From positions 3,456,001 through 3,520,000 of the forward strand of contig OZ244042.1 of NCBI GenBank assembly GCA_965215015.1: DNA of 64,000 nucleotides. The letters run 5' to 3'. Of the stretch, positions 1-44,684 are shown in pieces (the first letter of the stretch is position 1; the number at the start of each line of letters is the position of its first letter). This stretch comes from Candidatus Poribacteria bacterium (GTDB taxonomy: Bacteria > Poribacteria > WGA-4E > PCPOR2b). Made by a program: the position numbers and the translations under genes. Below the pieces are notes generated by a model that saw only the letters and a program-made list of their open reading frames with translations, searched no databases and was not told the origin of the DNA.

Positions 1-248
1 AGTAGGTCGAGCACACCGCTCAATCCGAGGGACTCGGCATGTAGTGAGATGTGGAATTTACGGCTGCCAGCCTCAAGCCCATAGCGGGCGAGGGTTCGAC
101 GCCGCTCTAGGACACTCAACACCTCGTGTTGGACTGCGCCGATTTGCATCGGATGCGTTGTTGGACGTGTCACAGGGGTGTAGTAGGTGTGGTAGACCAC
201 TCGTGGGCAGTAGAAGTATTGTTTGATGTCGCTGACGCGTATGTTCAT
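1..248 (-). CDS. cas4: CRISPR-associated Cas4, N-terminal part (runs off window edge)
   Basis: Not in ORF track. Manual translation from ATG at 248 (AAGGAG RBS): MNIRVSDIKQYFYCPRVVYHTYY...LGLSGVLDL, with the Cas4 S-D-I-K-Q-Y-x-Y-C-P-R and L-x-G-x-x-D motifs; directly after cas2. Confidence 0.9.
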   Translation of the reverse strand, partial: MNIRVSDIKQYFYCPRVVYHTYYTPVTRPTTHPMQIGAVQHEVLSVLERRRTLARYGLEAGSRKFHISLHAESLGLSGVLDL

Positions 249-300
249 TTTTGGCTCCTTATAATAAAAACAAGGTGCAGAGGACGAAGAGAGACTGCAC

Positions 301-326
301 GCGCAATGAATTGCGCTACTACGAAC
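301..326. repeat. GTAG-type REP element (representative of several dispersed intergenic repeat families)
   Basis: GCGCAATGAATTGCGCTACTAC recurs at ~33450 and ~53383. Other families: TGTCGCCCCGCTGGGGCT (~10488, 19999, 28338, 53111), CTTACGCAGTTGAAC (~24399, 30078, 33063, 53305), TGTCTGAATCAGGATT (~633, 2046, 11864, 44678). Confidence 0.75.
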
Positions 327-374
327 TGGGATTATAATAAATACAATCTGTTGTACGTGTTCTTAGCATGAGTG

Positions 375-626
375 TCATTCTCCAGTCTCCTCAATAACGG
401 TTCGTTTGTCGAAGTCTTTCGCGCAGACGCTGAGGACTTCGATCTTCCCTTCCGCTTTGCCGAGTTGTTCGGTCAGTTTTTCCTCTAACGCCCGCCTGCG
501 TGTGGTATTGATGTCGCCGAGGAATGCGCTATATTGGATGCGTTTTAAGCCGTAATCGAGGCAGACATCGGCGATTTTTTTGCGGATGCGGTCTTTAACA
601 ATGTCGTAGATGACGTAGGTGTGCAT
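375..626 (-). CDS. cas2: CRISPR-associated endonuclease Cas2
   Basis: YVIYDI...RKKIADVCLDYGLKRIQYSAF motif, 83 aa, between cas1 and cas4. Confidence 0.95.
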   Translation of the reverse strand: MHTYVIYDIVKDRIRKKIADVCLDYGLKRIQYSAFLGDINTTRRRALEEKLTEQLGKAEGKIEVLSVCAKDFDKRTVIEETGE

Positions 627-786
627 AATTATTGTCTAAATCGCGGATTAAGCGGAGGACACGGATTGGGAAACGAATCCCGCGATGCGCTTAGATGGCA
701 ATTTGGGTTAATAGTGTAGAAGGGGTTAGAAACCGAGTTTTGCAGAGACGGGTGGGGAAACCCCGCCCCGATGGTTTCTAGGTTGT

Positions 787-1896
787 TTACCATGTGGAGG
801 TGAAGGGGTGATAATCCCGTTCGCGGCGTAGGCACATCGCTAGATGACGGGCTTGGATTTGGATAATGTTGCACAGTTTTTGTTCCTTTCGCTCGAATCG
901 CTCGGTCTCTTGAAGCCTCGCTAGGACGCGGTCGGCAAGGGCGCGTCGGGTCCCTTGGCTGAGGCGGCGTTGTGTTGGGGTTTCGTCCTCGGTATCGGGT
1001 TTTGAGGATTGGTGCGCGGCTTTGGCGGCGTCCCTGTCGGGATCTTCCCACTCCACTTTGAATCGCTTGTTGATCATCACAAACACCACTCGATCCACGA
1101 TCGGTTGGCGGAACTCTTCGATAAAGTCGAGCACTAATGAGGGTTTACCGGGGCGGTCAACGTGTAGGAATCCGGCGAACGGTTCAAGCCCAGCCAATGT
1201 GAGTGCGCTCCAGACCTGTGAGTAGAGTATGCCGTAGCCGTAGTTGAGCAGTGCGTTGACGTCATCGACCACGCCTTGATGGTTTCGGGTGGTGAAGCGT
1301 CCGGCGGGCAGCAGCCGTTGGACGCATTCCCAGTAGAGTGCGCCGGCGCGTCCTTCAAGGTTGAGTAGTGTCCCCCGTGCGCTGTCAATCGGCGGTTCAT
1401 CGGCTGCCGCAACGGTTGGGGATTGGACAGACCGAATCTCGTCAATAAGTCCTTCGATCTTGGTCAGCCGTTCGATCAATTCGACGTATTTTTTGGGTGC
1501 CCGTTTCTTGCGGTATTTGCCGAAGTAGCGGACGAGGTTGATTTGGTTCTTCAGTTTGCCTGCGGTGAATTGTTTGGCGATTTCTAAGCCGCGCTCGTCG
1601 TGGTAGGCGGCGAGCTGCTCACGTCGGGAAATCACGGTCGCTGTCAGCGATGGGCTGTTGAGTTTCGCATAGGGTTTGCCGTTGAAACTGAGGAATGAGA
1701 TTTCGATGCCGCGCTCGGTGCACGCTTCAATAAGGTCTGAGGACATGCTGACGCCGCGTGAGGCGATGACGATCTGGTCGAGGTCCATCAGAGGGTGCTC
1801 CTCTTTTTCGCGGTCTTTGTCTCGGTATCGGACGCTGACGCGTTCGGAGCGTTTGCCGAGGTATGTGCCGTAGTCGGAGATGATGAGTTGTTCCAC
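787..1896 (-). CDS. cas1: CRISPR-associated endonuclease Cas1
   Basis: LEGRAGALYW, NALLNYGYGILY, GFLH and SLVLDFIEEFRQPIVDR catalytic motifs. Confidence 0.97.
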   Translation of the reverse strand: MEQLIISDYGTYLGKRSERVSVRYRDKDREKEEHPLMDLDQIVIASRGVSMSSDLIEACTERGIEISFLSFNGKPYAKLNSPSLTATVISRREQLAAYHDERGLEIAKQFTAGKLKNQINLVRYFGKYRKKRAPKKYVELIERLTKIEGLIDEIRSVQSPTVAAADEPPIDSARGTLLNLEGRAGALYWECVQRLLPAGRFTTRNHQGVVDDVNALLNYGYGILYSQVWSALTLAGLEPFAGFLHVDRPGKPSLVLDFIEEFRQPIVDRVVFVMINKRFKVEWEDPDRDAAKAAHQSSKPDTEDETPTQRRLSQGTRRALADRVLARLQETERFERKEQKLCNIIQIQARHLAMCLRRERDYHPFTSTW

Positions 1897-2407: not shown

Positions 2408-2575
2408 TCAACAGCGGAAAACTTTGGCTTGCCCCTCGAAGGGGGCTTGGAGGCGATGCCTTATTATACGCTCCACAAGAATATTGTTGAGACTGACGTG
2501 GAGGCGGGGAAGCGTATTCTCGTGGAGAAATTCGGTGAGGTCGCGGAGTTCTGTAACCGTAATTGAAAGCTCCAT
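2408..2575 (-). CDS. Small or truncated hypothetical protein (55 aa) coupled to the NDT gene
   Basis: ATG overlaps the NDT stop (TGATG); MELSITVTELRDLTEFLHENTLPRL...; may be a 5' gene fragment. Confidence 0.4.
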   Translation of the reverse strand: MELSITVTELRDLTEFLHENTLPRLHVSLNNILVERIIRHRLQAPFEGQAKVFRC

Positions 2576-3108
2576 CACCCGCCTCCTTCTAACTCGATAT
2601 CAGTATGGAACGCGCGGCTACTCGCGTTCCATACATCTTTTTTGCCCCCGGCGTCTCTAGCCCATTGATAGATAGAACTATGCGCCTTTTCGATGCTATC
2701 TAACGACGTTAGCAGCCAGTAAGCCCAATTCTGTCTGGGGAGCGCAGCAGCTAACATGAGGTTGATAGGATATTCGCTTCTCTCACCAGAATCGCGGAGG
2801 TCGTCATGAAAGATAAATACTTCTTTTTCGAGTATAGCCGCAGCGCCTAGTTCAAACATCACGCCCGGGTCAGGTGGTATCCCGTTGACGACAGCAAAAA
2901 TCCCGTCGGCTTCTTTGATGTCGAGAACGTTCTTCATGGCAAGTTCGTAAGCCCACTCCTCGGACTTGCCGATGATATGATTGTTCCGTTGAAACGGTTC
3001 CCAAACTTCAAGCCCTATCGCTTCAAGACGCTTGACGAATTCGGGGAGTACGAGTTGCCGTTCGACCGTTGAGAAGCCAAAGTCGTTGGCTAAATAGATG
3101 GTCTTCAT
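2575..3108 (-). CDS. Nucleoside 2-deoxyribosyltransferase (NDT)-family protein
   Basis: IYLA N-terminus, EVWEPF, ADGIFAVVNG-PPDPGVMFELG (catalytic Glu position) and YPINLML. Confidence 0.85.
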   Translation of the reverse strand: MKTIYLANDFGFSTVERQLVLPEFVKRLEAIGLEVWEPFQRNNHIIGKSEEWAYELAMKNVLDIKEADGIFAVVNGIPPDPGVMFELGAAAILEKEVFIFHDDLRDSGERSEYPINLMLAAALPRQNWAYWLLTSLDSIEKAHSSIYQWARDAGGKKDVWNASSRAFHTDIELEGGG

Positions 3109-3122
3109 TCAAACCTCCGCGG

Positions 3123-3548
3123 TCAACCTGAAAGCACGATGATTATGGATTCTGCTTGGAATGTCTCGAGTAAGAATCTCTCACTATCGAGAATTAACAG
3201 CGCTCCTTCCGTTACTGAGACTAAAACTACAGGGAGAACAGTCGAATCCATAAGAAAGTAAACTTTGCCCGCCCGGTAATAAAAAGCCCGGAAGTTTTCA
3301 ACCGTAATACGATCGTCGTCTATGCGAATTACTCCATTATCATCGTAGTCAGCAGCAGTGAGAGGATGTTCGATTACGATCACACTATCTGTCGAGCCAT
3401 CGAGCCCCTGCTCCCCTTTCGGACCCGGCAGCCCCTGTGGGCCCATTGACCCCATTGGCCCTGTAAGCCCTTGCGGCCCCGTGGGCCCCGGCGGCCCCTC
3501 GCATCCGATGGAAATAACTAATAGTAAAACACACAACATCTCTTTCAT
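3123..3548 (-). CDS. Collagen-like lipoprotein, copy 1 (12 Gly-X-Y triplets)
   Basis: Hydrophobic signal with SIG-C lipobox, then GPP GPT GPQ..., then a ~90-aa globular domain (IEHPLT...[14 protein letters not shown]). Confidence 0.85.
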
Positions 3549-3654
3549 TGCTTTATCCTTTCATGGTGCGCCCGAACAGGCACTTAAACAAGTTTTAATT
3601 GAATTGCCTATGTAAATAAATCCATTGATTGCTCTAATCAAAAGCGTTCTACGC

Positions 3655-3720
3655 GGTTGCATGATGCTTGATTTCCCGGCGTTATTAGCACCTGCGAGGA
3701 GCGTTAAAGAGCGGATTGTG
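3655..3720 (-). pseudogene. Fragment of AAA/ABC-type ATPase N-terminus (Walker A)
   Basis: IRSLTLLAGANNAGKSSIMQP inside ORF 3561-3749; no remainder of the gene is present. Confidence 0.6.
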
Positions 3721-4103
3721 TAAAAGTACCGCCGATAGCATCTCCTCAACCTGACTGAACCCGAACTGACTCGCCAATTCGGGAACTACTTCCTCGGCTA
3801 ACTCTCGATTTACATCAGAGAGGAAGGCTCGCCTTCCCATCACGTATTCCTGCCATTCGTCAAGTTCTTTACCAACATCATGTGCGAGAACGCTGGTTAA
3901 GAGCACTTGCTCCTCGGACTCCGTCAGTGGGGGTGAGAAAGTATGCTGAAGCAGCGGTAACAATGTGATTAAAGCGTCAATTTCGATAAGTGTATGGTCA
4001 AAATAAGCTTTGCTCAAAATTTCTTCGCTTTGCGATTTTTTTTCTTCCAATCGCGATTGAGCATGAATTCAACAGCCTCTCTTCTGAATGCTTGATAATC
4101 CAT
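3685..4103 (-). pseudogene. Truncated, frameshifted Cas3''/Cas10d-type HD-domain gene
   Basis: ATG 4103 with GGAGG RBS. Removing one base from the A8 run (4036-4043) and one from the T4 run (~4000) gives MDYQAFRR...KKKIAKRRNFEQSLFDHTL...LAHDVGKELDEWQEYV. Confidence 0.7.
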
Positions 4104-4417: not shown

Positions 4418-5128
4418 TTAATTTTCGCCGGTAGTAGATGGGGTAACCAATCGTTCATAATCGCTAAAACTACGACTCGATCTGTGCAATCGGTAGGGAA
4501 GCATGGCAAGGAAGGTATGCCGTTCCTTGCCAACACGGATCTTCTTCCCACTGTAGATATCAGCTTGATCGAAACTCATTTTAGCGTTGCAATCATCTAA
4601 GTGTTGTAACTGACTTTCGATGTGCCATGTCTCTGCTTGTTCAACTAGAGATATGAAGTCAGAAGGTAGTGCTTCAACTGATTGGATCGGCGGAAGAAAC
4701 TGGAAGAACCCACCACGTTTCCCAAAGTAAGTAATATTAAGCAGTAGCCGCTGCAACTGTTCTTCCTGTGAATCATCGTGAATTTCAAAGCCCAACCTCA
4801 TTTTGCCAACGAAATGGACATATTCGCGGTAGCCGATGGTTCTCTCGAATCCCTCCTTATCGCTAGAATGAGGCGGCTTGAGGATACGAGTAAATACGTT
4901 GTTGACCAAAGCGCGTTCTGGCAAATGCACTGCTAACGACAAAGTGCGAATCCATTCCCACGCTTGTTTGCCGTAGTTGATTCCTTCTGTACGGAGAGCT
5001 GCATCCAACAAGCCCATCTTTATCGCATAGGGGGTTGGTGTCAACAACGTTTTACCGCCTGACGATGTGGCATTGCTCGGCTTGAGTGAAAAGAAGGTCG
5101 TGGGTTGATAAGTTGCTAAGACCCACAT
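4418..5128 (-). CDS. cas5: Type I-A-like Cas5
   Basis: N-terminal FFSLK...TLLTPTPYAIKMGL, YREYV and YFGKRGGF Gly loop; follows cas7. Confidence 0.85.
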   Translation of the reverse strand: MWVLATYQPTTFFSLKPSNATSSGGKTLLTPTPYAIKMGLLDAALRTEGINYGKQAWEWIRTLSLAVHLPERALVNNVFTRILKPPHSSDKEGFERTIGYREYVHFVGKMRLGFEIHDDSQEEQLQRLLLNITYFGKRGGFFQFLPPIQSVEALPSDFISLVEQAETWHIESQLQHLDDCNAKMSFDQADIYSGKKIRVGKERHTFLAMLPYRLHRSSRSFSDYERLVTPSTTGEN

Positions 5129-5129
5129 T

Positions 5130-6140
5130 TTAAGTGCCTCCGTTATAGTTAATTTTGTAAGGTGCAGTTGTGTTAGCTAGGTTTGCCATAACTTCAGCAT
5201 ACTCGCCTAATGAATCAAATTTGCAGAGTTTAATCGCGCTTGTCTCGATCTGATTGAGTGCGTCTGCGACACGTCTGATTTCGTCCTTGTACTTGTCATT
5301 AAGTGGACTAACTGTAGGTGCGGGCAAAATCTTTGTGCTGAGACTAACAATTCCGTCGAAGTTCACAAGATGAGGGTGCTGAGCACTTCGCATTGCGCCG
5401 TTTGGCTCAACAAAAGTACACAGTAGGCTTTCAATCAGTGTTTTGTATCGTTGATTGCGCTCACTGTCATCAATCGCGTATTTCTGGTTGATATCGTTGA
5501 AACCAAGCCGTGAAACTTCAATGCCTGCTACAACTGCGTAAACCCCTGAATTGGCTGGACGGTGGAAGATATTCTGACCGAGATTGGCACCACTTTCATC
5601 TGTATTATCACCATTATCTGCATTCTGCTGTCCACGATCAGGTACATATTTGACATGAAAGTAGTTGTCGGTCTTAGTCAGCTCTGGTATGCCCACCACC
5701 CAACCGAACTCTACAATTGACTTGCGGGGTGTGGCCTTCTTCTTGGATCGATTTGTAACAAGGATGCCTTCAATGTCATCCATTGCACACATTTCCAACA
5801 TCGTTGTAATCATTTTGTCATCCGGTGTGCTCTGTTCGTAGCTGCTGTCAAAGGTTGAATCGTCGAGAATGCGATTTGCGCTGAACCTTTGGCAACCTGA
5901 ACATAGCTTCAGTCCACTATTTCTGCTCAAGTGGAACAGATGTTCGGCTTGAATGTGTTTGAACATATCACCTGAAATTGCGTTCACGGCAGCGAGTTTA
6001 CCCGCTTGATCATAGATGTTAACCATTCGGGTTGCGATTTGATTTCCTTCACTGCCTTCGTTATTGAGGGAGTGCATATCAATTGTGGCTCTGCCGCAGA
6101 TGGTGAGGGAGTAAAGGGCTTTGCTATCACTCATTGTCAT
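5130..6140 (-). CDS. cas7: Cas7 (DevR/Csa2 family)
   Basis: HSLNNEGSEGN, AISGDMFKH, C-x-x-C and RKSIVEFGW motifs typical of DevR/Csa2-type Cas7. Confidence 0.9.
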   Translation of the reverse strand: MTMSDSKALYSLTICGRATIDMHSLNNEGSEGNQIATRMVNIYDQAGKLAAVNAISGDMFKHIQAEHLFHLSRNSGLKLCSGCQRFSANRILDDSTFDSSYEQSTPDDKMITTMLEMCAMDDIEGILVTNRSKKKATPRKSIVEFGWVVGIPELTKTDNYFHVKYVPDRGQQNADNGDNTDESGANLGQNIFHRPANSGVYAVVAGIEVSRLGFNDINQKYAIDDSERNQRYKTLIESLLCTFVEPNGAMRSAQHPHLVNFDGIVSLSTKILPAPTVSPLNDKYKDEIRRVADALNQIETSAIKLCKFDSLGEYAEVMANLANTTAPYKINYNGGT

Positions 6141-6200
6141 TCTCCTTTTCGGTATGAGGGGGTGTGGCGATATTGCTTGTTGGTCTATCTTGTCGAAAGA

Positions 6201-6641
6201 TTAAGAAGGAATATCTCCTGAACTTGTGTCAGTGGTTGTGGTAGTATCAGTTGTTGATACATCATCTCTGCTAGTAGAAGCGTATCCGAACGCCAATAGT
6301 AGATGACAAATTGTTTGAGGACCATGTTCATCAATTAATTGAACAATTTCGGTAATGTCGTCTTCACGGACACTTTTCCGCCAGTGTTGGGCTGAGTTTT
6401 CGGCTACGCTGGCATTTTCGGCGTTGAAAGAGTGAAGAAAATTACCTAACGCCTGAATGAACTCGTCCGGGTAGTTTGCCTTGCGTCGTAATTCTTGACC
6501 AAGTCCATATCGGATGTCATACGGAGGTCTTCCACTTTTTGCCATATATTGCAGCGTCACAGTACTTTGACGGATGGATCTGGCGATGTTTTGAAAGCCT
6601 TCGCTTTTAATAATTGGCGTAAGTTCTTTCTGCTTGCTCAT
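6201..6641 (-). CDS. Putative internally translated small subunit (Cas11-like), in frame within cas8
   Basis: GAGGAG-7nt-ATG inside cas8 (RBS 6649-6654, ATG 6641); 146 aa starting MSKQKELTPIIKSEGFQNIARSIR. Confidence 0.65.
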   Translation of the reverse strand: MSKQKELTPIIKSEGFQNIARSIRQSTVTLQYMAKSGRPPYDIRYGLGQELRRKANYPDEFIQALGNFLHSFNAENASVAENSAQHWRKSVREDDITEIVQLIDEHGPQTICHLLLAFGYASTSRDDVSTTDTTTTTDTSSGDIPS

Positions 6642-8006
6642 CAGTAGACTCCTCAAATTGGTTGCGCTCAACGGCTTAACCCAGAAGTTTTCCTTCACTA
6701 AGGCGTTGAGCAGATAGTTTGGATATTGTGATGTGAATTCAAAGAACGCTGTAAAATCGTTTGCGGAAAGAAAATTTCGATAGTGCTGGAGTAGTTGGTA
6801 ACCCTCACTCCGTTCCTCCTCTAAACTTTTTACGATGTTGAGGTGTTCCTCTATCACCCCCTGGTACACTTGCACATCATTTCTATCTTTAATGTTCATC
6901 CAGCTGGGTAGATTGATAAAGGAAAGGTTCATTACGGCGGCCGAGTTGCCGAGATCCTTATAAAATGCGGTGTGTAAGCCCGCTACAAAGTTTTCAGGGG
7001 CACGCCCCTGCAACTCCACAGCTAAGGAAGCACTTGCTTCTGCTTCACAGTGTCGTAGAAAGCACTTTGTGTAGCTGAGTGCAGCAAAGATGTCCGATTT
7101 AATTGCGTGTCGGTTCCCTACCACATCCCTGAATCTTGCGAAAATTGTGTTGTGCTCATCCAATGTGATATTGACCGGGGCTAGTGCAAAGGTCTTCCGA
7201 TCCTTCGGGGGCTCGCCCTGTTTTACTAACACGAAGCGGGGTACTGCACAATGGTAGAAACCAACCATCTTCAGATATTCGCATAGCCAGAAGCTGTTTA
7301 CATTCTTCATTGACAAGCTGCTTGCTTTGGTGGCGTTCTGTCCTTTGCCTGTGCTTGGGTTGAACACTTGGAGCATATTCAAGCGATCTTTACCGATAAA
7401 CTGTTTCTCTTTTTTGAGTTTTTTCCATGCTTGCTCACAGGTCGCAACTGGGTTTGGAATTTTAGCATGGAGTGCCAGCAACAGCTTGAGTAACTCCGCG
7501 AAGTGCTCACGGGTTTCATACCAATTGGTGACGGCTGAATTGTAAGCACTAATCCCTGACATCATGTTGATTTTCTGCCAAATGCGATAATTGGGGTCTG
7601 GTTCACTTTCTCTCAAAACTGTAAGTGCTTCGCTGTCGTCGGCATTCTGCTTTAGTGTATCACCTAGAGTCCTGCGTAATTCGTTGTAGTCATCGTAACG
7701 CTCTTTTTCTCCGTTGTAATCTATGTTGTAAATATCCTCCGGCATTGTTTCACTGTTCTTTGGTGTTTTAATAAAAGGGATAGGGGCAAAGGAGCTTTTT
7801 AAATTCTCAACCCATTCTGCTTGTAACGCAGGAATGAGTTCAATCGCATAGGTTGTCCCCCTATCCAAAATCTTGATAGTATGGGACTCATATTCGCCGA
7901 GGGTACGTTGCAAAAGTTGGTGTAAGATAGTTGCTAATCCATAAGCGGAACAGACATCAGCAAATGTGCCTGTTTGTTTGTCAACGAAATAGGTCTGTTG
8001 GTACAT
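6201..8006 (-). CDS. cas8: Large Cascade subunit Cas8a-like
   Basis: 601 aa between cas3 and cas7; NPSTGKGQN motif; helical C-terminal domain. Confidence 0.75.
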   Translation of the reverse strand: MYQQTYFVDKQTGTFADVCSAYGLATILHQLLQRTLGEYESHTIKILDRGTTYAIELIPALQAEWVENLKSSFAPIPFIKTPKNSETMPEDIYNIDYNGEKERYDDYNELRRTLGDTLKQNADDSEALTVLRESEPDPNYRIWQKINMMSGISAYNSAVTNWYETREHFAELLKLLLALHAKIPNPVATCEQAWKKLKKEKQFIGKDRLNMLQVFNPSTGKGQNATKASSLSMKNVNSFWLCEYLKMVGFYHCAVPRFVLVKQGEPPKDRKTFALAPVNITLDEHNTIFARFRDVVGNRHAIKSDIFAALSYTKCFLRHCEAEASASLAVELQGRAPENFVAGLHTAFYKDLGNSAAVMNLSFINLPSWMNIKDRNDVQVYQGVIEEHLNIVKSLEEERSEGYQLLQHYRNFLSANDFTAFFEFTSQYPNYLLNALVKENFWVKPLSATNLRSLLMSKQKELTPIIKSEGFQNIARSIRQSTVTLQYMAKSGRPPYDIRYGLGQELRRKANYPDEFIQALGNFLHSFNAENASVAENSAQHWRKSVREDDITEIVQLIDEHGPQTICHLLLAFGYASTSRDDVSTTDTTTTTDTSSGDIPS

Positions 8007-8019
8007 CAGTTCTCACTCC

Positions 8020-10437
8020 TTATATACTGATTTGTGAAGTTGCTTCTTGGTCAGCGAGTCGTAAGGCTCGGACAATTAAAAAATAAGTCAACAGCGAAGG
8101 TGTGTTGCTTGGGGACACAAACATACCGGTTAATGACCGGGGTTGATCTTGTGTACAAATCTTTTCTAAGTGGGTTTGAGCCACCTGCCCCGCCTCCCCA
8201 ATCATTTGTAAAGTTGTTTCGATTGAAGTTTGGAAATCGGGATGGAGTTCGTAAGTCTGGTATTGATCGGCTTTCGGCGCATGATGACGCGCAATTGCAG
8301 TAAGACTAGCTTTGAATAAAATCTCTTGATCGTAGAAAGTAGCCCCTAGTAAAGGTGCGACGGCGCGCATACTCTCAACAGCATGTGGGGGCCGTTTAAC
8401 AGGGAAATGTTTCTCCTTTTCGCGTACTGCGGAGTTACCTCGGTTGTAATCGGTATGGGCCGCCATATAGTTTGGATCAATAGGTTTATCAATCAACCGT
8501 TGCCATTCATGTGCCCACCGCTGCCAACCACACGTCAGTTTTCCGATATCGTGCAGAGCAATGCAGAGTCGAATCGTCTGATCAATTGCGCCCTCTTTTG
8601 TTTCCAACCTCTGCTCAAGTTGGGAGGCGGCGTAACTTAGTTCAGCCTCTAGCCCAGCGTCGTATACGTTTAGCAAGCGTTCGATGTGTTCCGTGTATGT
8701 CTCACGGCGATAACCTGTGCTGAGCTCACGTTCTCGGGGGGCTTCGCCCTCAGAGATGCTTAATGCACAAGGCTTTTCCCCCGTTTCAAGCTGAAAGCCT
8801 ATTTTGTCATCGTATGCGACCAATTGTGGATGCACAATAAACAGTGGCGAAATCCCTAAAGTTTCCTTCTCCTTTACTTCGCGCCAGTTGTAGGTGATTG
8901 TAGTACGGCTGTTTGGTGAATCGTCCTCGGCTTCAATAGGATACTTTAGCACCCAACCCAGTCCTTGCTTTTGTGCCTCTTCTTGAAGTTTATCCCACGC
9001 TCCAAAGAGTGTGCCGCGATAGAGATTGAAGCCTTCAACTCGAAACGGTTTATCAAGTGTCTCAGGTTTGTCATGCACGAGAAGCGTTCGGGAATCATTC
9101 TTACGAATCAACTCACGAGCAAGAGCCAATTCTTGGTTAGATATTGCCCTCTCCATTTTATCGCGCTTATCGCTGCTCGCAAGTTGCTCTAATATCTTCT
9201 CATCGCTTTCGCGGTGGACTTCGTTGATAACCTCTTGCTCTGCCGTAAAGTTCAACACCCTTCCGTTTCGTTGCTGGAATGCAGCTATTGTCAGTTCACA
9301 AGTTTTCTTTTCGTAGGGGGCGTAATTTAGTGAGCCATCAGGCCGAGATGGCACGGGATAGATTCGCACTGTGCCTGATTCATTTTTGAACCTAGCACAC
9401 CGTCCGGCCCGTTGAAAAATTGCGCTTGCTGGTGCCAGTTCTGTGTGCAAATTTTCACACGTAATGTCTAAGCCAACCTCGATCACCTGTGTAGCAACCA
9501 AAATCACGTTATCGGGGCCCACACCTCGTTTGAAACGCTTGCGTATCATATCCTCTTTAGCTTTACGATCTTCCTTCAGAAAGCGAGAGTGCAATAGCAA
9601 CACTTCCGTTGTGCCACGCTGTGGGTTATCCCGCAACGACTGATACATCTTCTGTGCCCGTGCCACCGTATTGCAAATGACAATACTGCGTTGCTGGTGT
9701 TGAGTGATAACGGCGTCTGTGCTGCACAAAAGTGTTTGATTCTCAATCTTATATTCGCGGCGTTTTCCACACTGAGAAGGAATTTGTTTTAGTTCGTTCT
9801 CAGTCACCTGAACAACTTCGGCGTTAAAATATTCGCTCAAACGGTTGAGTAGCGGTTCCGAAAAAGTCGCAGTCATCAGTAAAAACGGTGTGATACCATT
9901 GAGCATTTTCAGCATTTCAATCACAGTTCCCAACGAAGTATCAGGATCGAATAAGTGAAATTCATCAAAGACTAGATATGCGCCAACAACTGCTCCCGCG
10001 TTGACATTACCCTGACGTAACCCTAGCGCATAAGGGATGTTAAGAAAACTACTCAAGACCTGATCGATTGTCGTAAAAATCAAGTCGCTACGAAACTGAC
10101 GGTCCTCCTGATTTTCACCCGTCTGAATGTTTGCCGTGAGAGTCTGTTGTCTTCCTATTGGCGATTCTTGGAAGTCGGTGTGAAAATTCTTTGCCAAAAC
10201 CCGCATTGGCGTGGCGTAAAGCAACTTCCGGGGAAATGGTTTGTCTTCCTGCTGGGCTAGCAGGAACGGAAACAACGCGGCTTTCGTCTTGCCCGCCCCC
10301 GTTGGTGCTTGTAAAATCACATTGCGCCTGTTTAACAGATGCTGTGCTACCTTGCGTTGAAATGTAAAGGGAATGAATTCAAACATTCTCTGAAACTGGT
10401 TATCCCAATACCGTTTATCTTTATCAAAATTTGACAT
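8020..10437 (-). CDS. cas3: Cas3 helicase with C-terminal HD nuclease
   Basis: APTGAGKT, DEFH, MTAT, ATQVIEVGLDI and QRAGRCAR helicase motifs; then H...LHDIGK...HH...LADQ HD domain. Confidence 0.95.
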   Translation of the reverse strand: MSNFDKDKRYWDNQFQRMFEFIPFTFQRKVAQHLLNRRNVILQAPTGAGKTKAALFPFLLAQQEDKPFPRKLLYATPMRVLAKNFHTDFQESPIGRQQTLTANIQTGENQEDRQFRSDLIFTTIDQVLSSFLNIPYALGLRQGNVNAGAVVGAYLVFDEFHLFDPDTSLGTVIEMLKMLNGITPFLLMTATFSEPLLNRLSEYFNAEVVQVTENELKQIPSQCGKRREYKIENQTLLCSTDAVITQHQQRSIVICNTVARAQKMYQSLRDNPQRGTTEVLLLHSRFLKEDRKAKEDMIRKRFKRGVGPDNVILVATQVIEVGLDITCENLHTELAPASAIFQRAGRCARFKNESGTVRIYPVPSRPDGSLNYAPYEKKTCELTIAAFQQRNGRVLNFTAEQEVINEVHRESDEKILEQLASSDKRDKMERAISNQELALARELIRKNDSRTLLVHDKPETLDKPFRVEGFNLYRGTLFGAWDKLQEEAQKQGLGWVLKYPIEAEDDSPNSRTTITYNWREVKEKETLGISPLFIVHPQLVAYDDKIGFQLETGEKPCALSISEGEAPRERELSTGYRRETYTEHIERLLNVYDAGLEAELSYAASQLEQRLETKEGAIDQTIRLCIALHDIGKLTCGWQRWAHEWQRLIDKPIDPNYMAAHTDYNRGNSAVREKEKHFPVKRPPHAVESMRAVAPLLGATFYDQEILFKASLTAIARHHAPKADQYQTYELHPDFQTSIETTLQMIGEAGQVAQTHLEKICTQDQPRSLTGMFVSPSNTPSLLTYFLIVRALRLADQEATSQISI

Positions 10438-10783
10438 TGTAAAACCTCCTTGAGTTTGATACGTGATTTATAATTCAAGTTGCTACTTGTCGTCCCGTTG
10501 GGGCTTTGGGTTGTAGTGACTCGTTCTTGATATACACATCGCGCTCCTCTAGAGCGCGAAGATTGGACCTATTACTATTCTATAGACATCTTGCTCCATA
10601 TGACCCTGTATGATGAAAGCCCATTGCTTGGTACAGCGATCTCAGCAAGTTGCATTGCCCGTTGCTAAATCATTGCGAAAGGCAGAGTCCTCCAGTTTTA
10701 ATAGAAATATTGATGGATTTTCAATAACCAACAACTTGGGTTAAAATGGTAGCCACAAAGGCTACCTCCATTATCTCTACGCC

Positions 10784-11722
10784 TTATCCAACCTTATACT
10801 TCCCCAACCCAAACGTTGCATTTTTGCCGACGTGTAGAAACGCACCCAACGCCACAAATGGCAGGAACGCCGCCAAATCGCCCGCATAGGTTACGCTGCC
10901 GACTAGCCCGCCGAGTTGCATTTTCTGATTCTGCCGCGACGAATAGCGCGTCCAATCGTGCCAACGTAATTTGCTCTGGACCGTTTGGACGGTTTCTGCC
11001 TGTGCGATGAGTCCCTTAAAATCGAGATTCAGCGATTCGCCGCAGTGGAAATATGCCAAGGCGGAGATGCGTCCAATTAAACGTCGCCAGAAGAGGTGGA
11101 ACGGGAGTTTATCCGTTATTTGCCCCTTGTGTGTGACCCGCGTGGGGGTGAGTAGGTGGACGGTCAATGAATCGGTTGGCAAAGATTCTACTTGCCGCTG
11201 GATTTCGTCGAAACAGAGTGCGTTATTGCGGTTGTGTGCCATCTGGGTGTCGCTGTCGTAGATTGATTCCCCACTATCGGTCAGGACTTGGGTCAGTTGG
11301 AAACGGCCGCGCCCCTTGCCGATGCCGATCTCACCCAAATCGCGGAAGCTGACAAGAAAATAGGGGAGGTAGTCGATGGCACGGCCGATAAGGGTGAGAC
11401 GGAACGCAAACGAATTGCCTCGGCGGTATTCACCTCGTGTGTTCAACGGATCGATGACAAAGGGTCTTGGCACATCGCCGTATGTCCGCAGTTGTTGCGC
11501 GCCCTCAAATGGGGCGGTCTCGAAGATGTACGGGTATGGGCAGACCGTTTTAAGGGTGCAGTCCCGGCAGTCAATGGGCCCTTGGGTGCAGACCATTTTT
11601 CGGAAGGCGTGTCCGAATCCGCCGCGGAGTGTGGAGCCGGCGTAGGGGGGCATCAGAATGGTTGAGAGTGCTGTTAGGATCACATGGTAGCGTGCGAATC
11701 GGAAGTTTTGAAGTGGATTCAT
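10784..11722 (-). CDS. cas6: Cas6 crRNA-processing RAMP endoribonuclease
   Basis: GSTLRGGFG, Cys cluster, VPRPFVI and C-terminal HVGKNATFGLG Gly loop. Confidence 0.92.
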   Translation of the reverse strand: MNPLQNFRFARYHVILTALSTILMPPYAGSTLRGGFGHAFRKMVCTQGPIDCRDCTLKTVCPYPYIFETAPFEGAQQLRTYGDVPRPFVIDPLNTRGEYRRGNSFAFRLTLIGRAIDYLPYFLVSFRDLGEIGIGKGRGRFQLTQVLTDSGESIYDSDTQMAHNRNNALCFDEIQRQVESLPTDSLTVHLLTPTRVTHKGQITDKLPFHLFWRRLIGRISALAYFHCGESLNLDFKGLIAQAETVQTVQSKLRWHDWTRYSSRQNQKMQLGGLVGSVTYAGDLAAFLPFVALGAFLHVGKNATFGLGKYKVG

Positions 11723-11982
11723 TATTGTGTCCTTTTCTTACATTGTCCGCTTTTCATCGCGTCATTGGGAGATGATTGATTCTCTTTTTAATAAAAAAAA
11801 CAATATTTATTTCAGTCCCCTTTTCATCGGGGCAAAATTTAAGTGAGGGGTGCTCATAATAATTGTCTGAATCGCAGATAGAGTCGATGGTACAGAAAGC
11901 ACGGATACAGATATGGGGCGCAGGTTGTTCAGGCATATCGTGCGGGGTAATCATAAAAAGGGACTGTGGCACGATACAGGTA

Positions 11983-12057
11983 TCATAAAGCAGGTAGTAC
12001 AAGCTGCCGCTCGACTGTTGAGAAACCGAAGTCGTTCGCTAAATAGATTGTCTTCAT
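11983..12057 (-). pseudogene. NDT gene 5' fragment (about 22 codons of homology)
   Basis: [24 protein letters not shown]; identical start to the intact NDT at 2575-3108. Confidence 0.8.
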
Positions 12058-12521
12058 TCAAACCTCCGCGGCCCACCCGAAAGCACGATAACTAGGGATT
12101 CTGCTCCGATCTTGAGTAAGTATTTGTCCTCATCGGAAATAAACAACGAGCCTTCCGCTACTGCGACTATCAAGATATAAGCACCCGAATCGATATGAAC
12201 GTAAATTTCGCCTGCCCGGTAATACAAAGCCCGGAAGTTTTCAAGCGTGATACGATCATCATCTATGAAAACTATTCCATTATCGTAGTGATCAATGGTA
12301 AGAGGCCGTTCGATTACGATCACACTATTTGCCGGGCCGGGGAAACCCTGTAGACCCTGCTCCCCTTTCTGCCCCGGCAGCCCCTGCGGGCCTATTGACC
12401 CCATTGGTCCTGTAGGCCCTTGCGGTCCTGTAGGACCCGGCGGCCCCTCGCATCCGACGAATATAACGAATAGTAAAACACTCAACATCAGTGAGTTTGT
12501 CAACGCTTTCATGACTTTCAT
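12054..12521 (-). CDS. Collagen-like lipoprotein, copy 2 (13 Gly-X-Y triplets)
   Basis: FVG-C lipobox, collagen run and a divergent version of the same C-terminal domain. Confidence 0.85.
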
Positions 12522-12744
12522 TGCTTTATCCTTTCATGTTGCGCCCGAACAGGCACTCTTGCGTAAGCGATCTGAAGCCGCTTACCGTTATTTTAGTGAT
12601 GCCTTGAGTCGTTTTTTATAGCCTTTCATGGCGTGTAGCCCATTGTATCGACACCGACTGAGATACAGTTATCTCAAGGTTCTCAGGATCGCCTCCGAGC
12701 AGATCGAGTGCAGCAGTGCCAGTGACGCGCCTTTCGTTCTGCAA
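12521..12744. repeat. ~225-bp segment duplicated at ~14265-14492 (unknown gene tail plus collagen-gene leader)
   Basis: Both copies encode ...LQNERRVTG.AALDLLGGD.ENLEITVSQSV.IQWATRHERL* and share the leader hairpins GTAAGCG...CGCTTAC and GTGCCTGTTCGGGCGC. Confidence 0.9.
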
Positions 12745-12978
12745 CCGCAGCGATTCTTTTTTAAAGCGGTCTCTCATTCGTACCGCTAACTCGGATCGGT
12801 TCTCAATGTCGAAGAAGCAGCCCCACTGTTCGGATTTGCCGACGATACGATTGTTCCGTTCAAACGGCTCCCAGACTTCAAGCCCTATCGCTTCAAGCCG
12901 CTTGACGAATTCGGGGAGCACGAGCTGCCGTTCAACTGCTGAGAAACCGAAGGCGTTGGCTAAATAGATAGTTTTCAT
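12616..12978 (-). pseudogene. Chimeric ORF: NDT N-terminus (~53 aa) fused to the C-terminal tail of an unknown gene
   Basis: Matches the intact NDT up to GKSEQW (~12823), then switches to sequence whose tail recurs at 14363-14491. Confidence 0.8.
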
Positions 12979-13737
12979 TCAGACCTCCCGCGGTGAATCC
13001 TCAAGCACGATGACTATGGCTTCTGGTTCTATCTGAAGTAAGATTTTGTCAGGATCGGCAATCCGCACCGCTCCTTCCTCGACTCCGACCACCAATACGG
13101 GTCTAAAATGTGTATCAATAAGAACATAAACGTGACTGTCCCTGTAATACAAAGCTCGGAAGCTTTCAAGAGTGATACGATCGTCAAATATGCGAATGAT
13201 TCGATTATGATCGTAGCTCGCAGCAGTAAAAGGCTGTTCGATGACGATCACACGATTTGCCGGGCCGGGGAACCCCTGCTCCCCTTTGGGTCCCGTGAGT
13301 CCTGTAGCCCCTTTCGGACCCGGAGGCCCTTCTATGCCCTGCAGACCCTTTGGCCCTATGGGTCCGAGTGGGCCTTCTATGCCCTGTAGACCTCGCTCAC
13401 CCCGTAAACCTTGTATGCCCTGCAGGCCCTGTAGACCTTGGGGGCCCTCGGGTCCGATTAGCCCCGGCGGCCCTTCTATGCCTTGCGGCCCTCGCTCACC
13501 TCGTAACCCTTCTGTGCCTTGCGGCCCTCGCTCACCTCGTAACCCTTGTATGCCCTGCAGGCCCTGTAGACCTTGTTCGCCTTGTTCGCCCTGTTCGCCC
13601 GCCGGCCCCATTGGACCCATTGGACCCGTCGGCCCTGTGGGCCCCGGCGGCCCCTCGCATCCGACGAATATAACGAATAACAAAACACTCAACATCCGTG
13701 AGTGTATCAACGCTTTCATTGCTTTCATGACTTTCAT
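12979..13737 (-). CDS. Collagen-like lipoprotein, copy 3 (44 Gly-X-Y triplets)
   Basis: FVG-C lipobox, long uninterrupted collagen run with GLRGER three times, divergent C-terminal domain. Confidence 0.88.
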
Positions 13738-13741
13738 TGTT

Positions 13742-13816
13742 TTATCCTTTCATGGTGCGCCCGAACAGGCGCTGAGTTGAGAAACCGAAGTCGTTCGCTA
13801 AATAGATGGTCTTCAT
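13742..13816 (-). pseudogene. NDT gene 5' fragment (14 codons) joined to the next collagen-gene leader
   Basis: [14 protein letters not shown], then a junction at ~13775 into GCGCCTGTTCGGGCGC. Confidence 0.8.
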
Positions 13817-13830
13817 TCAAACCTCCGCGG

Positions 13831-14265
13831 TCAACCTGAAAGCACGATGATTATGGATTCTGCTTGGAATGTCTCGAGTAAGAATCTCTCGCTATCGACA
13901 ATTAACAGCGCTCCTTCCGTTACTGAGACTAAAACTACAGGGAGAACAGTCGAATCCATAAGAAAGTAAACTTTGCCCGCCCGGTAATAAAAAGTCCGGA
14001 AGTTTTCAACCGTAATACGATCGTCATCGATGCGAATGACTCCATTATCATCGTAGTCAGCAGCAGTGAGAGGATGTTCGATTGCAATCACACTATCTGC
14101 CGAGCCATCGAGCCCCTGCTCCCCTTTCGGACCCGGCAGTCCTTGTGGTCCCATTGACCCCATTGGACCTGTAGGCCCTTGCGGCCCCATGGGACCCGGC
14201 GGCCCCTCGCATCCGACGAATATAACGAATAGAAAAACACATAACATCTCTTTCATGACTTTCAT
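13831..14265 (-). CDS. Collagen-like lipoprotein, copy 4 (12 Gly-X-Y triplets), near-identical to copy 1
   Basis: FVG-C lipobox; mature protein differs from copy 1 at about 6 positions. Confidence 0.85.
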
Positions 14266-14512
14266 TGCTTTATCCTTTCATGTTGCGCCCGAACAGGCAC
14301 TCTTGCGTAAGCGATCTGAAGCCGCTTACCGTTATTTTAATGAGGCCTTGAATAGTCATTTTTTATAGCCTTTCATGGCGTGTAGCCCATTGTATCGGCA
14401 CTGACTGGGATACAGTGATCTCAAGGTTCTCAGAATCGCCTCCAAGCAGATCGAGTGCAGCAGCGCCGGTTACACGCCTTTCGTTTTGCAACTTAACTGA
14501 GTTTTCAATTAT

Positions 14513-14571: not shown

Positions 14572-15561
14572 CTAGCTCTGGTATTTTTTTATCATTTTTG
14601 TGATTTCTTGGGCGATTTCCTCACGAAAATCGGGGGGCGTGAGCACTTCCGCACAACTGCCCCATTGCAAAATCTGACGCATTAGCCCTTCTCGGCCTTC
14701 GGTATCGAAATGCAGCTCGATTTGGTCGTCCCCGAGGTCAATCTGTTTTTGCAAACCCTGCCATTTCTGGGCGCGTACCCAGCGGGACGCGGGTGGGTTC
14801 ACACGGATGATCGCCTGTACAGGTTGGTCTTTCATGCCGCCGAAGCCGCGTGTGATGTACTCGTTGAGGTCAAAGTCCTCCTGAAGTTCAAAGGTTTCGT
14901 CGAGAAGTGTCAGGGAGCGCATCCGGTCGTCAAATACAAATTCGCGGAGTGCTTTTCGGGTATGGCAATAGCCGATTAGTCGCAGCGCGTTGTCCGAATA
15001 GGCGATGCCGTAAGGGTCAACCTTGCGTTGGCGGGATTCGCCCCGGCTCGCAGAATGATAGAGGAGGTCGAGGCGTTTCCGTTCTTCACAGGCGGTTTGT
15101 GCTTGGCTGATGTGTGGTGCGACATTTTGAAAATCTGTCACGGGTTGGAGTCGAAACGCGAGGATGTTTTGAATACGGTTAAAGTAGTCCTGACTTTCAA
15201 CCGGCAGTGTGGCGTGAATTTTTTTAAGGGCGTTGGTGAGTGCTTCAAAGTATGGCGTTCCTTTGAGGAACGTGGTGGCATCTTGTGCGATGGTCAACGC
15301 CAACCGTTCGGGTACCGACAGATCGAGTGCTGGGAACTGGTAATCTTCCTTGAATCTATAGCGCACTTGCTGCCCCTCCCTCTCTTTCAGAATTGATGGA
15401 AAATACCGCATGAGGCTAGGGAGGTCCCGGTCAATCGTGCGTTCACTGACACCGATCTCAGCAATCAGCTGTTGCTTTGTGATACCGTAACGTCTGTTAA
15501 TCTTCTGCAGAATCAGCCATTGCCGCTCTATTTGCTTTTCGTCTGCAATTCGTTGGGGCAT
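14572..15561 (-). CDS. wHTH-WYL-WCX transcriptional regulator
   Basis: HTH (GVSERTIDRDL), WYL domain (RKVDPYGI...LIGYCHTRKALREF) and WCX (ILQWGSCAEVLTPPDFR). Confidence 0.93.
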   Translation of the reverse strand: MPQRIADEKQIERQWLILQKINRRYGITKQQLIAEIGVSERTIDRDLPSLMRYFPSILKEREGQQVRYRFKEDYQFPALDLSVPERLALTIAQDATTFLKGTPYFEALTNALKKIHATLPVESQDYFNRIQNILAFRLQPVTDFQNVAPHISQAQTACEERKRLDLLYHSASRGESRQRKVDPYGIAYSDNALRLIGYCHTRKALREFVFDDRMRSLTLLDETFELQEDFDLNEYITRGFGGMKDQPVQAIIRVNPPASRWVRAQKWQGLQKQIDLGDDQIELHFDTEGREGLMRQILQWGSCAEVLTPPDFREEIAQEITKMIKKYQS

Positions 15562-15955: not shown

Positions 15956-16543
15956 ATGAAAGAAAATACTGAACAACGCAGTAAGGTGCAGCAATCTCGG
16001 GAATGGGAAAGGAAACGAGCTGAGGCTCAAGATAAGAAAGAGGCTGAGGCTAGAGCGGGCGGTAGTGGTTCAAGAGGGTTGAGTTCTCCATCTCCAAATG
16101 AACCTCGGGATTACGGGTTGGAAGCAAGGATAGAAGCTAAGCGACAGGCAGCGGGTGGGCCTGATTATGCTGAGCAACCTGTGCGTGATATGATGGATGT
16201 TGAATCAGGGAATGTTGAATCTAAGGATGCTGAATCTGGTGAGACTAATGAAGATGAATTTACAAAGTTTGGTATGGAGGCTATTGCGGATGGGACGAAG
16301 ATTGCGGATTTAGAAGATGAGAATGAGATACTTAAGGAACAGCTCGAGAATTTTAAGAAAGGAAATAATGTTTTTAGCGAAGAGGGTATTAAACAGATGA
16401 ATAGTGAAGTGCAGCAATTGAATATAGATTTGAATATCGTGATGGACTGGGTCCAAAATGGAATCATCACTGGGGAGTGGGCAGAGGAGTTTAAACGACG
16501 TAGTCTTCAAGGGATTTTGAACAGGTTACCGCCTGAAAAATAA
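15956..16543 (+). CDS. Hypothetical charged/coiled-coil protein
   Basis: 195-aa ORF with GAGGTAAGGA RBS; no recognisable family. Confidence 0.7.
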   Translation: MKENTEQRSKVQQSREWERKRAEAQDKKEAEARAGGSGSRGLSSPSPNEPRDYGLEARIEAKRQAAGGPDYAEQPVRDMMDVESGNVESKDAESGETNEDEFTKFGMEAIADGTKIADLEDENEILKEQLENFKKGNNVFSEEGIKQMNSEVQQLNIDLNIVMDWVQNGIITGEWAEEFKRRSLQGILNRLPPEK

Positions 16544-24279: not shown

Positions 24280-24407
24280 TACAGAACTGCGGATTCATAA
24301 TGATCAAACCCGATGAAAAGGGGACTGAAATTATGAAAAAGGGACTGAAAAACGCAGATTTCGCAGATAAAAACAGCGGTTCATGTAAAGAAGTAGGACT
24401 TACGCAG

Positions 24408-44000: not shown

Positions 44001-44684
44001 CCACTTCTGCGCGGCCGAGACATTGAGCGCTATTATCCCCGATGGTCGGGATTGTACATACTGGCAACCGATTACGATCTGGATGTCCCCAACGACTATC
44101 CCGCTATCTATAGCTACCTGCAAACCATAGGGGAGCAGATAGCAGATAAAATCGCGCGACAAACGCAAGCAAGACGTAGAGGACTGTTTAATAGGGATGA
44201 TCAAGGTGAGAATTGGTGGAATCTGAGAGCTTGTGCTTACTACCCTGAATTTGAGCGGGAGAAGATTGTTTGGCAAGAGATGGCAACGAAAGGAACATTT
44301 CTTATTGATAGAAACCAATTCTATTCGCTTGATACCACACGGATATTAACGGGCAAAAATCTTACCTACCTTATTGGTATCCTAAATTCAAAGTTCTTTC
44401 TTTTCGCATTTAGGAATTACTATGCGGGGGGTCATTTAGGTTCAAGAGGAGTCAGATTTAAGAGTGAGTTCATGAAACGCTTCCCTGTTCCCCCTGTTAC
44501 AGAAGCAAACCAACACCTTGCTGCACAGATAGAAGCGCGTGTTGACCAAATCCTCGCTGCCAAAGAGACTGACCCGGAGGCGGATGTATCTAAACTTGAA
44601 AATGAGATTGATCAGATAGTATACTTGTTATACGGTCTGACTCCTGAAGAAATCGGTATTGTGGATTGTGCGGAACATGTCTGA
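41058..44684 (+). CDS. Large type IIG/Eco57I-like N6-adenine RM methyltransferase with TaqI-like C-terminal recognition domain
   Basis: PFINGGLF, GSYYTP, DPAVGSGAFPMG, IGNPPY and GIKTGCNEAF; 1208 aa. Confidence 0.9.
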   Translation: MTDQEIKKSEIESALAKIPFGDFLETSKELLAVLGYRSQRTVKLSGTADDFIHSFPVENKNTKTEQEFRNNATSVELVFQVTNDEIADSQPDLFKSRPFDKGLIKSFLFFTVELEGNDYPRSKYAQFTREINKRLSIPTVVLFRIERRLTIAFVGRRPNQRDTSKEVLEKVTLIKDIRPDNPHRAHLDILSELSLGACAKWMDANHQPKNFDGLLEAWLARLDTEALNKQFYRELFAWFEWAVDEGKFPTNENRTLKQEEHVIRLITRLLFVWFIKEKGLVADELFNETHIAPLLKDYDRGTGDSYYRAVLQNLFFATLNTEIEKRGFSEGGNPVHRNFSRYRYKDQIANPDKLIGLFAQTPFINGGLFDCLDSEEATRDGGYRVDCFSDVHYSQLSIPNRLFFDDDYGLIPLLERYKFTVEENTPIEQEVALDPELLGKVFENLLAAYNPETGATARRQTGSYYTPRAIVDYMVEEALVATLAGRVSPTDGDPKFWDDRLCYLFDYAKAFDDASERFDSCESDRVVRAISELKILDPAVGSGAFPMGILHKLTLALRRLDPDNTRWETLQKERAAQRAADAFDTADDHIRREALLEINETFKRYRDSDFGRKLYLIQNSIFGVDIQSIACQIAKLRFFISLAIEQEPDRAADNFGIKPLPNLETRFIAANTLIGLEGERTLTSPRAKALEGKLSENRERHFHATTRSQKLDCKRADKKLRQELATELRHIGMPADDANKVAAWDPYDQNASADWFDPEWMFGVTDGFDVVIGNPPYIQLQRDGGRLGHLYAPCNFDSFIRTGDIYCLFYEKANQLLKNGGHGCLITSNKWMRAAYGKKLRDYLIGYTQPIQLLDMGPDVFDATVDTNILLLRNTMPDAYSVFKAATIKSDFDIHTGAIAPYLNASGVAMELPATGEPWAILSPAELALKRKIEHVGKPLKDWDINIYFGIKTGCNEAFIIDEAKREELVAEDPKSAEIIKPLLRGRDIERYYPRWSGLYILATDYDLDVPNDYPAIYSYLQTIGEQIADKIARQTQARRRGLFNRDDQGENWWNLRACAYYPEFEREKIVWQEMATKGTFLIDRNQFYSLDTTRILTGKNLTYLIGILNSKFFLFAFRNYYAGGHLGSRGVRFKSEFMKRFPVPPVTEANQHLAAQIEARVDQILAAKETDPEADVSKLENEIDQIVYLLYGLTPEEIGIVDCAEHV

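Follow-up and report, generated by a model that had tools for sequence, protein, structure and literature searches.

Collagen-stalk lipoprotein genes with ragged gene scraps downstream of a WYL regulator in a poribacterial CRISPR-Cas region: a possible stack of divergent alleles

Arrays in which one gene is kept intact and its neighbours are cut have been described for the orphan immunity genes of Vibrio cholerae's type VI secretion system (T6SS), and the accessible parts of these reports explain them by sequential displacement through homology-facilitated illegitimate recombination (PMC5361080, PMC8189183). Here we describe a locus of comparable build in a 64,000-nucleotide stretch of DNA from a Candidatus Poribacteria bacterium (contig OZ244042.1, positions 3,456,001 to 3,520,000; the whole stretch is called the window, and coordinates are counted from its first base). 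It contains four genes for lipoproteins with a collagen stalk, designated A to D, all on the minus strand and inside a CRISPR-Cas region, with A, B and C in tandem and D 9 kb apart. As far as those accounts go, the two kinds of array share divergent alleles, which in Vibrio come from different strains and may do so here, behind a conserved 5' anchor, as well as truncated or lost neighbours, recombination mosaics and a retained gene that stays intact where its neighbours are cut at variable points. The poribacterial locus differs from what they describe in having no secretion system or identifiable effector, in retaining a collagen lipoprotein, in bearing remnants on both sides of it, and in its putative anchor, a WYL regulator and its promoter in a CRISPR-Cas locus.

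Two further types of system offer partial parallels. The Gly-X-Y stalk of variable length and the globular head recall the collagen-like surface proteins Scl1/Scl2, Lcl and BclA, but here there is an N-terminal lipid anchor and the head matches no family. A polar stack of acquired units behind one promoter is also the plan of integron cassette arrays and CRISPR arrays, unlike which this locus has no integrase (among the open reading frames (ORFs) of positions 1-22000), attC site, repeat-spacer period or precise ends. The building principle is already known from the Vibrio arrays; what appears to be new is the lipoprotein family, its tie to a WYL box and its stacking within a CRISPR-Cas locus, for none of which a description was found in a literature search that covered few subscription papers. 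Our best explanation, which we judge to have an even chance of being right, is that the units form a stack of divergent alleles of one chromosomal cassette, gathered at a recombination hot spot behind the WYL regulator by homology-anchored and illegitimate recombination.

Read along the minus strand, the order is the WYL regulator (15561-14572), unit A (14492-13776), unit B (13773-12822), unit C (12821-11993), the operon cas6-cas3-cas8a-cas7-cas5, a stump of cas10d, a crumb of an ATPase gene, unit D (3584-2575), an ORF of 56 amino acids (aa) and cas1-cas2-cas4. Every unit consists of a leader hairpin, a lipoprotein gene (lipobox GCEG, collagen stalk and a head of about 95 aa) and the start of a gene of the nucleoside 2-deoxyribosyltransferase (NDT) family. 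The units are 0.7-1 kb long, lack flanking repeats and have a GC content of 0.49-0.56, equal to that of the surrounding genes; they are 74-93% identical to one another by BLASTN, with E-values down to 0, far past chance. Unit A opens with a 130-nt 3' tail of a gene that we call geneX (14363-14492), followed by an intergenic leader (14266-14362) with an 8-bp palindrome, the hairpin (14300-14285) and a ribosome-binding site, by lipoprotein A (13831-14265; 144 aa) and by an NDT scrap of 41 nt, or 13.7 codons (13776-13816). This scrap is abutted by the hairpin and leader of B (13738-13773), which precede lipoprotein B (12979-13737; 252 aa, with an expanded collagen stalk) and an NDT scrap of 157 nt, or 52.3 codons (12822-12978). 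The latter runs in frame into the geneX tail of unit C (12616-12821), up to about 206 nt long, in which 130 nt (12745-12616) are verified by homology to A and a further 77 nt (12821-12746) are merely in frame, with no match elsewhere. Behind a leader nearly identical to that of A, with its hairpin at 12556-12541, lie lipoprotein C (12054-12521; 155 aa) and an NDT scrap of 65 nt, or 21.7 codons (11993-12057). Unit D comprises the hairpin (3583-3568) and lipoprotein D (3123-3584 together; the gene itself 3548-3123, 141 aa) and the one intact NDT gene (2575-3108; 534 nt, 177 aa; PF05014, E 7e-23). The 56-aa ORF (2408-2578) overlaps the NDT stop codon and matches no family; family scans and the loci of relatives (see below) give no evidence for or against its being the start of geneX.

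The original prediction, made from the letters alone, had already noted that each collagen gene is followed by a differently cut NDT start, full length in D, that two copies (A and C) are preceded by a geneX tail ending in QWATRHERL*, and that the other two (B and D) begin at the leader hairpin. All three statements hold, the last with single-base precision: in both B and D, the match to the remaining units sets in at the identical base, 1 nt before the hairpin (13773 and 3584). To these are now added the WYL box promoters at 14544 and 4177, the mosaic structure of A, and the Cas10d and ATPase scraps before D. The hairpin pattern has four exact matches and one with two mismatches in the 64 kb (shuffle mean 1.04 at three or fewer mismatches), its predicted folding is no more stable than that of shuffled sequences (z -0.96 to +0.39), and the sequence after it, TGAAAGGA, reads as a ribosome-binding site. 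A role for the hairpin as a CRISPR repeat or Cas6 site was rejected, there being no Rfam match at it. At the junction of B and C the fusion of 52 NDT codons to the geneX tail creates a chimeric ORF of 120 aa (12978-12616, minus strand), which is listed as a gene in protein databases (P0003).

Synonymous and non-synonymous changes in the scraps were counted by the Nei-Gojobori method. Relative to the intact NDT of D, the counts are 9 and 0 in scrap C (21 codons), 3 and 0 in scrap A (13 codons), and 13 and 6 in scrap B (52 codons), giving ratios of non-synonymous to synonymous divergence (dN/dS) of 0-0.10. Between the geneX tails of A and C there are 8 synonymous and 3 non-synonymous changes (Fisher p 0.0008; dN/dS 0.11), the reading frame being the best of the six. 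No stop codon or frameshift occurs within any scrap. The scraps have diverged under purifying selection, as working genes; given their lack of stops and frameshifts, the cuts must be much younger than the divergence, and this rules out duplication of a fragment followed by neutral decay, the simple in situ course that the original prediction had set up as its own counter-case. Moreover, NDT scrap B is identical at 50 of 52 positions to P0005, an intact NDT encoded on a 2-kb contig elsewhere, versus 46 of 52 to that of D. Together with the purifying divergence, this favours the part of the original prediction that envisaged serial acquisition, here of units which had diverged by then and of which nothing but the lipoprotein was retained; the mobile-element donor that it also proposed fares differently, as discussed below. 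All three NDT cuts fall within the first 157 of 534 nt (probability 0.025 if uniform, a post hoc figure), which suggests that extra NDT was selected against or that a short path to cas6 was favoured. The remainder of geneX was sought among longer proteins, where the sole return from 87 candidates was the fusion ORF of the window itself, and the tail has no usable ESM Atlas match, no plasmid match and no match to NCBIfam, PHROG or any toxin family. A stretch of a phiKZ-like DNA polymerase, present in three phage records, was considered as a relative of geneX and at an E-value of 0.2 was taken as chance.

Recombination has also acted within the lipoprotein genes. Across unit A, the informative sites side with D from 14191 to 13808 and with C beyond either end of this segment (0 of 500 permutations). 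A is a recombinant, with a D-like head between C-like flanks, and its head was exchanged between the conserved leader and collagen segment on one side and the NDT start on the other. Gene conversion between copies is evident from the same pattern. All four lipoproteins match Pfam Collagen and share the lipobox, and the C-terminal head matches no Pfam, NCBIfam, PHROG or PDB sequence (the PDB sequence search gave 0 matches). The NCBIfam Scl/Lcl matches cover the collagen part only, at 23-92 bits versus cut-offs of 325-500. The head of C was modelled as an all-beta domain with a pLDDT of 86; a trimer prediction run on it gave no verdict. The heads change at a quicker pace: their dN/dS is 0.64-0.85 in five of the six pairs within the window, compared with a median of 0.38 across 21 pairs from 7 single-copy relatives.

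A word search for head homologues returned D only (1 of 12 candidates). The profile search of 1.84 billion representatives gave six matches, namely D itself, four proteins of the same lipobox-collagen-head architecture and one spurious entry that was dropped, the 3678-aa repeat protein P0074, in which no stretch was matched. The best cluster in an Atlas search (0.93) is unnamed, has collagen in 16% of its members and serves as a lead only. Going by these matches, the lipoproteins constitute a small but real family, with four copies here, one in each of 12 further genome loci and four more remote proteins.

The island is headed by a regulator of the HTH-WYL-WCX type (14572-15561, minus strand; Pfam WYL, WCX and HTH_11; PADLOC CRISPR-associated WYL, E 1e-39), which is weakly similar to solved WYL proteins (E 2e-8). 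Directly before unit A lies a putative promoter, P1 (14508-14544, minus strand), with a palindromic box CGAC-N7-GACG and a TATAAT element 10 nt after TGACGG. A second, P2 (4140-4177, minus strand), precedes the cas10d stump and unit D and has its TATAAT equally spaced. Among described WYL-type regulators, DdaA recognizes CGWCA-N5-TGWCG and, in the accessible parts of the report, also activates cas and restriction-modification operons (PMC12392091); DriD recognizes CGAC-N7-GTCG (PMC12340889); and the PafBC motif tGTCgg(N10)tA(N3)T has the same spacing to the -10 element as found here (PMC8635444). P1 is an exact match to the DdaA consensus and P2 deviates from it by one mismatch, while the DriD consensus is matched with one mismatch in the window box and exactly in most boxes of the relatives. 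P1 and P2 are homologous (0 of 500 shuffles), and such boxes occur just twice in the window (shuffle mean 0.1, with a pattern derived post hoc). A candidate remnant of the P1-leader region upstream of B and D did not stand out from its controls (307 of 2000 shuffles; an equal score in 63 of 908 AT-rich 30-mers).

To the extent that these regulons are covered in the accessible parts of the three reports (PMC12340889, PMC12392091, PMC8635444), the locus agrees with them in its HTH-WYL-WCX protein, in the -10 element 10 nt after a TG[TA]CG[GC] half-site and in the palindromic box at a fixed distance from it (both window boxes and 11 of 12 relatives). It differs in that the boxes are repeated before cassettes within one island instead of being spread over repair genes, and in having as a putative regulon member a collagen lipoprotein, which was not seen in those parts of the descriptions. 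We infer that the box is bound by the WYL protein, which on sensing single-stranded DNA from DNA damage or phage would induce A-B-C and, with them, the cas operon behind.

A scan of GTDB genomes yielded 12 further loci from 154 candidate stretches, 11 titled Latescibacterota or Latescibacteria and one Gemmatimonadaceae. Each locus, 17-20 kb in extent, has a single lipoprotein copy (frameshifted in the locus numbered L011). A palindrome CGAC-N7-GTCG, or a version with one mismatch, lies directly before the lipoprotein gene in 11 of the 12, and 10 nt after its half-site there is TAnnnT (seven loci) or CAGGTT (four). Eight loci have an upstream WYL gene of the same strand, and ten carry 2-7 boxes each. 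In L001, L003-L006 and L008-L010 a box and the WYL gene's own stop codon overlap (for example at 8189 in L003 and 5664 in L004; degenerate in L001). Right after this box the sequence differs from genome to genome, marking a sharp boundary of a variable region.

The gene content of these islands, taken from 75 ORFs of eight loci plus 22 further ORFs scanned, comprises AbiE, PD-(D/E)XK nucleases, methylases, an AAA ATPase, ADP-ribosylglycohydrolase, toxin-antitoxin pairs and a DnaB-like gene, in shuffled order. Raggedness similar to that of the window is widespread in them: the DnaB-like genes are either whole or cut off at 339, 815 or 881 nt, AbiEii stops at 50, 110 or 329 nt, and 3' tails of the AAA ATPase of 63-136 nt recur before other modules. 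L004 has two full copies each of the AAA and the DnaB-like gene. In L001 a WYL gene and box are followed by an inserted piece and then by a second WYL 3' tail with a box, a layout that would be expected as the footprint of an insertion anchored on the WYL gene. Eighteen junctions were inspected in the relatives; wherever both parents had been identified, the overlap amounts to 0 to about 5 nt. The DnaB-like helicase genes, repeated or truncated cargo in L002-L004, L006, L008 and L010 (for example 8340-9692 and 14196-15548 in L004), often stand behind a beta-barrel outer-membrane gene with its own box, and are possibly decoys or defence-associated helicases.

Under the allele-stack explanation, the cassette would consist of the leader, the collagen-stalk lipoprotein and NDT, preceded by geneX in some alleles, and related strains would carry single alleles of it behind the WYL gene. 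Incoming DNA would recombine homologously at the conserved WYL gene, promoter or leader and illegitimately at its other end, or would alternatively enter whole and then be trimmed by deletion. Older resident units would thereby be pushed downstream, with geneX and NDT surviving as ragged scraps and selection keeping the lipoprotein. The conserved leader and collagen segment and the NDT start could further serve as arms for ordinary recombination that swaps heads, as in unit A, and P2, together with the stump of cas10d, would represent an older layer of this stack. The identity of the donors and the order of events are reconstructed in this scheme, as is the use of the WYL gene and P1 as an anchor, to which the homology of P1 and P2 and the repeat in L001 point.

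Several observations weigh against this explanation. No intact geneX-lipoprotein-NDT locus was found in searches that did not extend to IMG/VR and metagenome contigs, and geneX, NDT and the 56-aa ORF occur in none of the 12 relatives' loci. Four of the 12 have no WYL gene within 10 kb and one has no box. The box pattern was derived from these very sequences, such that the shuffle control attests its recurrence and is no independent discovery, and the DdaA box is reported, in the accessible part of its description, to lie some 50 bp upstream of the start site, which differs from the spacing found here. A number of the relatives' junctions (AbiEii in L004, DnaB in L010, the outer-membrane gene in L002) are plain internal deletions, and raggedness therefore needs no import. 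The dN/dS of the heads stays below 1, and diversifying selection is thus not shown; in the A-D pair it is only 0.18. Fold comparison of the head stays at background and points to no function (best Z 6.0, and in Foldseek no E below 0.001). Finally, the heads of all four window units group in a single clade to the exclusion of the relatives (100 of 100), judged only against the distant relatives at hand, a result that paralogy in situ predicts equally well.

The last point leads to the main alternative, that the whole working geneX-lipoprotein-NDT operon was duplicated in tandem in situ, diverged for a long time and recently suffered deletions that spared only the lipoproteins. The monophyly of the window heads, the evident gene conversion between copies, the internal deletions in related islands and the GC content shared with the surrounding genes would all fit such a history. 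It would, however, require that three or four working NDT copies were kept until dS reached 0.5-1.3 and were then lost almost at once without decay; moreover, scrap B is nearer to an outside NDT than to that of D, and all 12 relatives are single-copy per locus. We consider this course unlikely.

A separate question is what the lipoproteins do, which is the weakest step of our account. From the lipid anchor, the variable stalk and head, the WYL box and the defence neighbours we derive an inducible surface shield or decoy against phages: membrane-anchored collagen stalks may display variable beta-sandwich heads that mask phage receptors or act as decoys for them, with several alleles widening the cover. 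We offer this tentatively, and its chances fall somewhat short of even. With the same origin, the products could instead be adhesins or proteins of host or biofilm interaction that are co-induced by stress, or orphan immunity proteins against a toxin (geneX or NDT). A collagen stalk with a beta head is a typical adhesin architecture, the array resembles those of orphan immunity genes, and the early NDT cuts hint at selection against extra NDT. Nevertheless, the Scl/Lcl matches are confined to the collagen part and lie far below cut-off, and in most relatives the WYL box and the neighbouring defence genes speak for a role in defence or the response to DNA damage. The geneX tail is conserved while the heads vary, the reverse of what is seen in toxin C-termini, and the relatives keep the lipoprotein without geneX or NDT. 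These roles appear quite improbable to us.

Small, variable lipoproteins such as Cor, Llp and Ltp are used by phages for superinfection exclusion and block phage entry. The lipoproteins described here are likewise small and variable and could block phage entry, and they might have been captured as fragments from related phages or plasmids, the host archiving a superinfection- or entry-exclusion protein. NDT does match phrog_7995 (E 2e-11), P0005 lies on a 2-kb contig of undefined nature, and phage neck and tail proteins are among the best VIA-align rows, with Z below 6. Yet no sequence or structural link to Cor, Llp or Ltp was found, and the genes here are chromosomal and encode a collagen stalk. 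Neither NDT nor the geneX tail nor head C finds a significant counterpart in 50,697 phage and 72,556 plasmid records (best E 0.06 and 0.2), and none of the three heads has a PHROG. The 12 relatives lie on chromosomes or contigs of metagenome-assembled genomes, behind host WYL boxes and among defence and housekeeping genes, and the ORFs of 1-22000 include no integrase or transposase. The mobile-element donor of the original prediction is thus unsupported by these searches, which reached neither IMG/VR nor metagenome contigs, and we regard capture from phages or plasmids as rather doubtful.

Directed insertion of gene-sized cassettes at the leader or hairpin by Cas1-Cas2 or an integron-like recombinase is largely refuted and hardly credible: cas1-cas2-cas4 do lie in the same island, B and D do start at the identical base and the 7-mer AACTCAG does flank A, but the five window junctions share no motif apart from the hairpin, the 7-mer (null probability 0.018, one of 10 comparisons) is not significant, Rfam finds no CRISPR repeat at any of the ragged unit ends, and the 75 ORFs from eight relatives' loci include no cas gene or integrase, although their islands are ragged alike. 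AACTCAG was accordingly rejected as proof of a target-site duplication, and with no repeat, att site or significant target duplication the proposed link to the spacer-acquisition module is not supported.

The allele-stack explanation can be extended to the view that WYL-headed islands are recombinase-free, integron-like archives, in which the WYL gene and the repeated boxes would act as both switch and anchor for the stacking of gene-sized alleles. By this route the window would have gained a repertoire of a new inducible anti-phage surface protein, with heads swapped between the conserved arms and co-induced with CRISPR-Cas. We think this extension improbable as a whole. A previously unannotated lipoprotein family stands behind a WYL box of the DNA-damage or phage type in at least two named phyla plus this organism, and is a concrete candidate for inducible surface-level defence. 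A displacement mechanism of the Vibrio type may operate at WYL-controlled defence hot spots and would explain the turnover of such islands without an integrase. Should the heads turn out to be phage-specific, the array would correspond, on the scale of genes, to a spacer array; otherwise it would be the fossil record, of unusual clarity, that an ordinary recombination hot spot has left.

The cas6-cas3-cas8a-cas7-cas5 operon downstream of the units (4418-11722, minus strand; Pfam and PADLOC) is type I-A-like, and the HD domain of its Cas3 (8020-10437) lies C-terminal to the helicase. The truncated 5' end of cas10d (3685-4103, minus strand; PADLOC Cas10d E 1.7e-30, profile positions 30-126 of 847, with a probable frameshift near the start) is a type I-D remnant, and it seems that a type I-D system was displaced by the type I-A-like effector operon, with only this stump left. 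The adjoining ATPase crumb (3660-3719, minus strand) is recognizable in translation by its Walker A motif LLAGANNAGKS, with only weak P-loop matches. At the far end are cas1, cas2 and the start of cas4 (3-1896, minus strand; Pfam and PADLOC). No CRISPR array occurs within the window, and one may lie beyond cas4. Upstream of cas6 there is a CRISPR-repeat-like sequence (11809-11845, minus strand; Rfam CRISPR-DR10 E 0.62 and DR32 E 4.7, both below gathering), a 23-mer of which recurs identically in an unrelated intergenic region (24309-24331, plus strand); it could be a solitary regulatory repeat or may be a dispersed one. Three tandem 103-bp copies of a dispersed intergenic repeat lie between the 56-aa ORF and cas1 (2020-2345), with related copies in the gap between cas1 and cas2 (608-648), before cas6 (11839-11873) and at 44658-44782. 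Divergent from the WYL gene is an acidic ORF of 195 aa (15956-16543, plus strand) with no convincing family, followed by a DUF433-DUF5615 pair. Farther off, a 1414-aa protein of many short repeats (55015-59259, minus strand), presumably YCF48/photosystem II assembly-like, adjoins a vWA-like gene (53776-54744).

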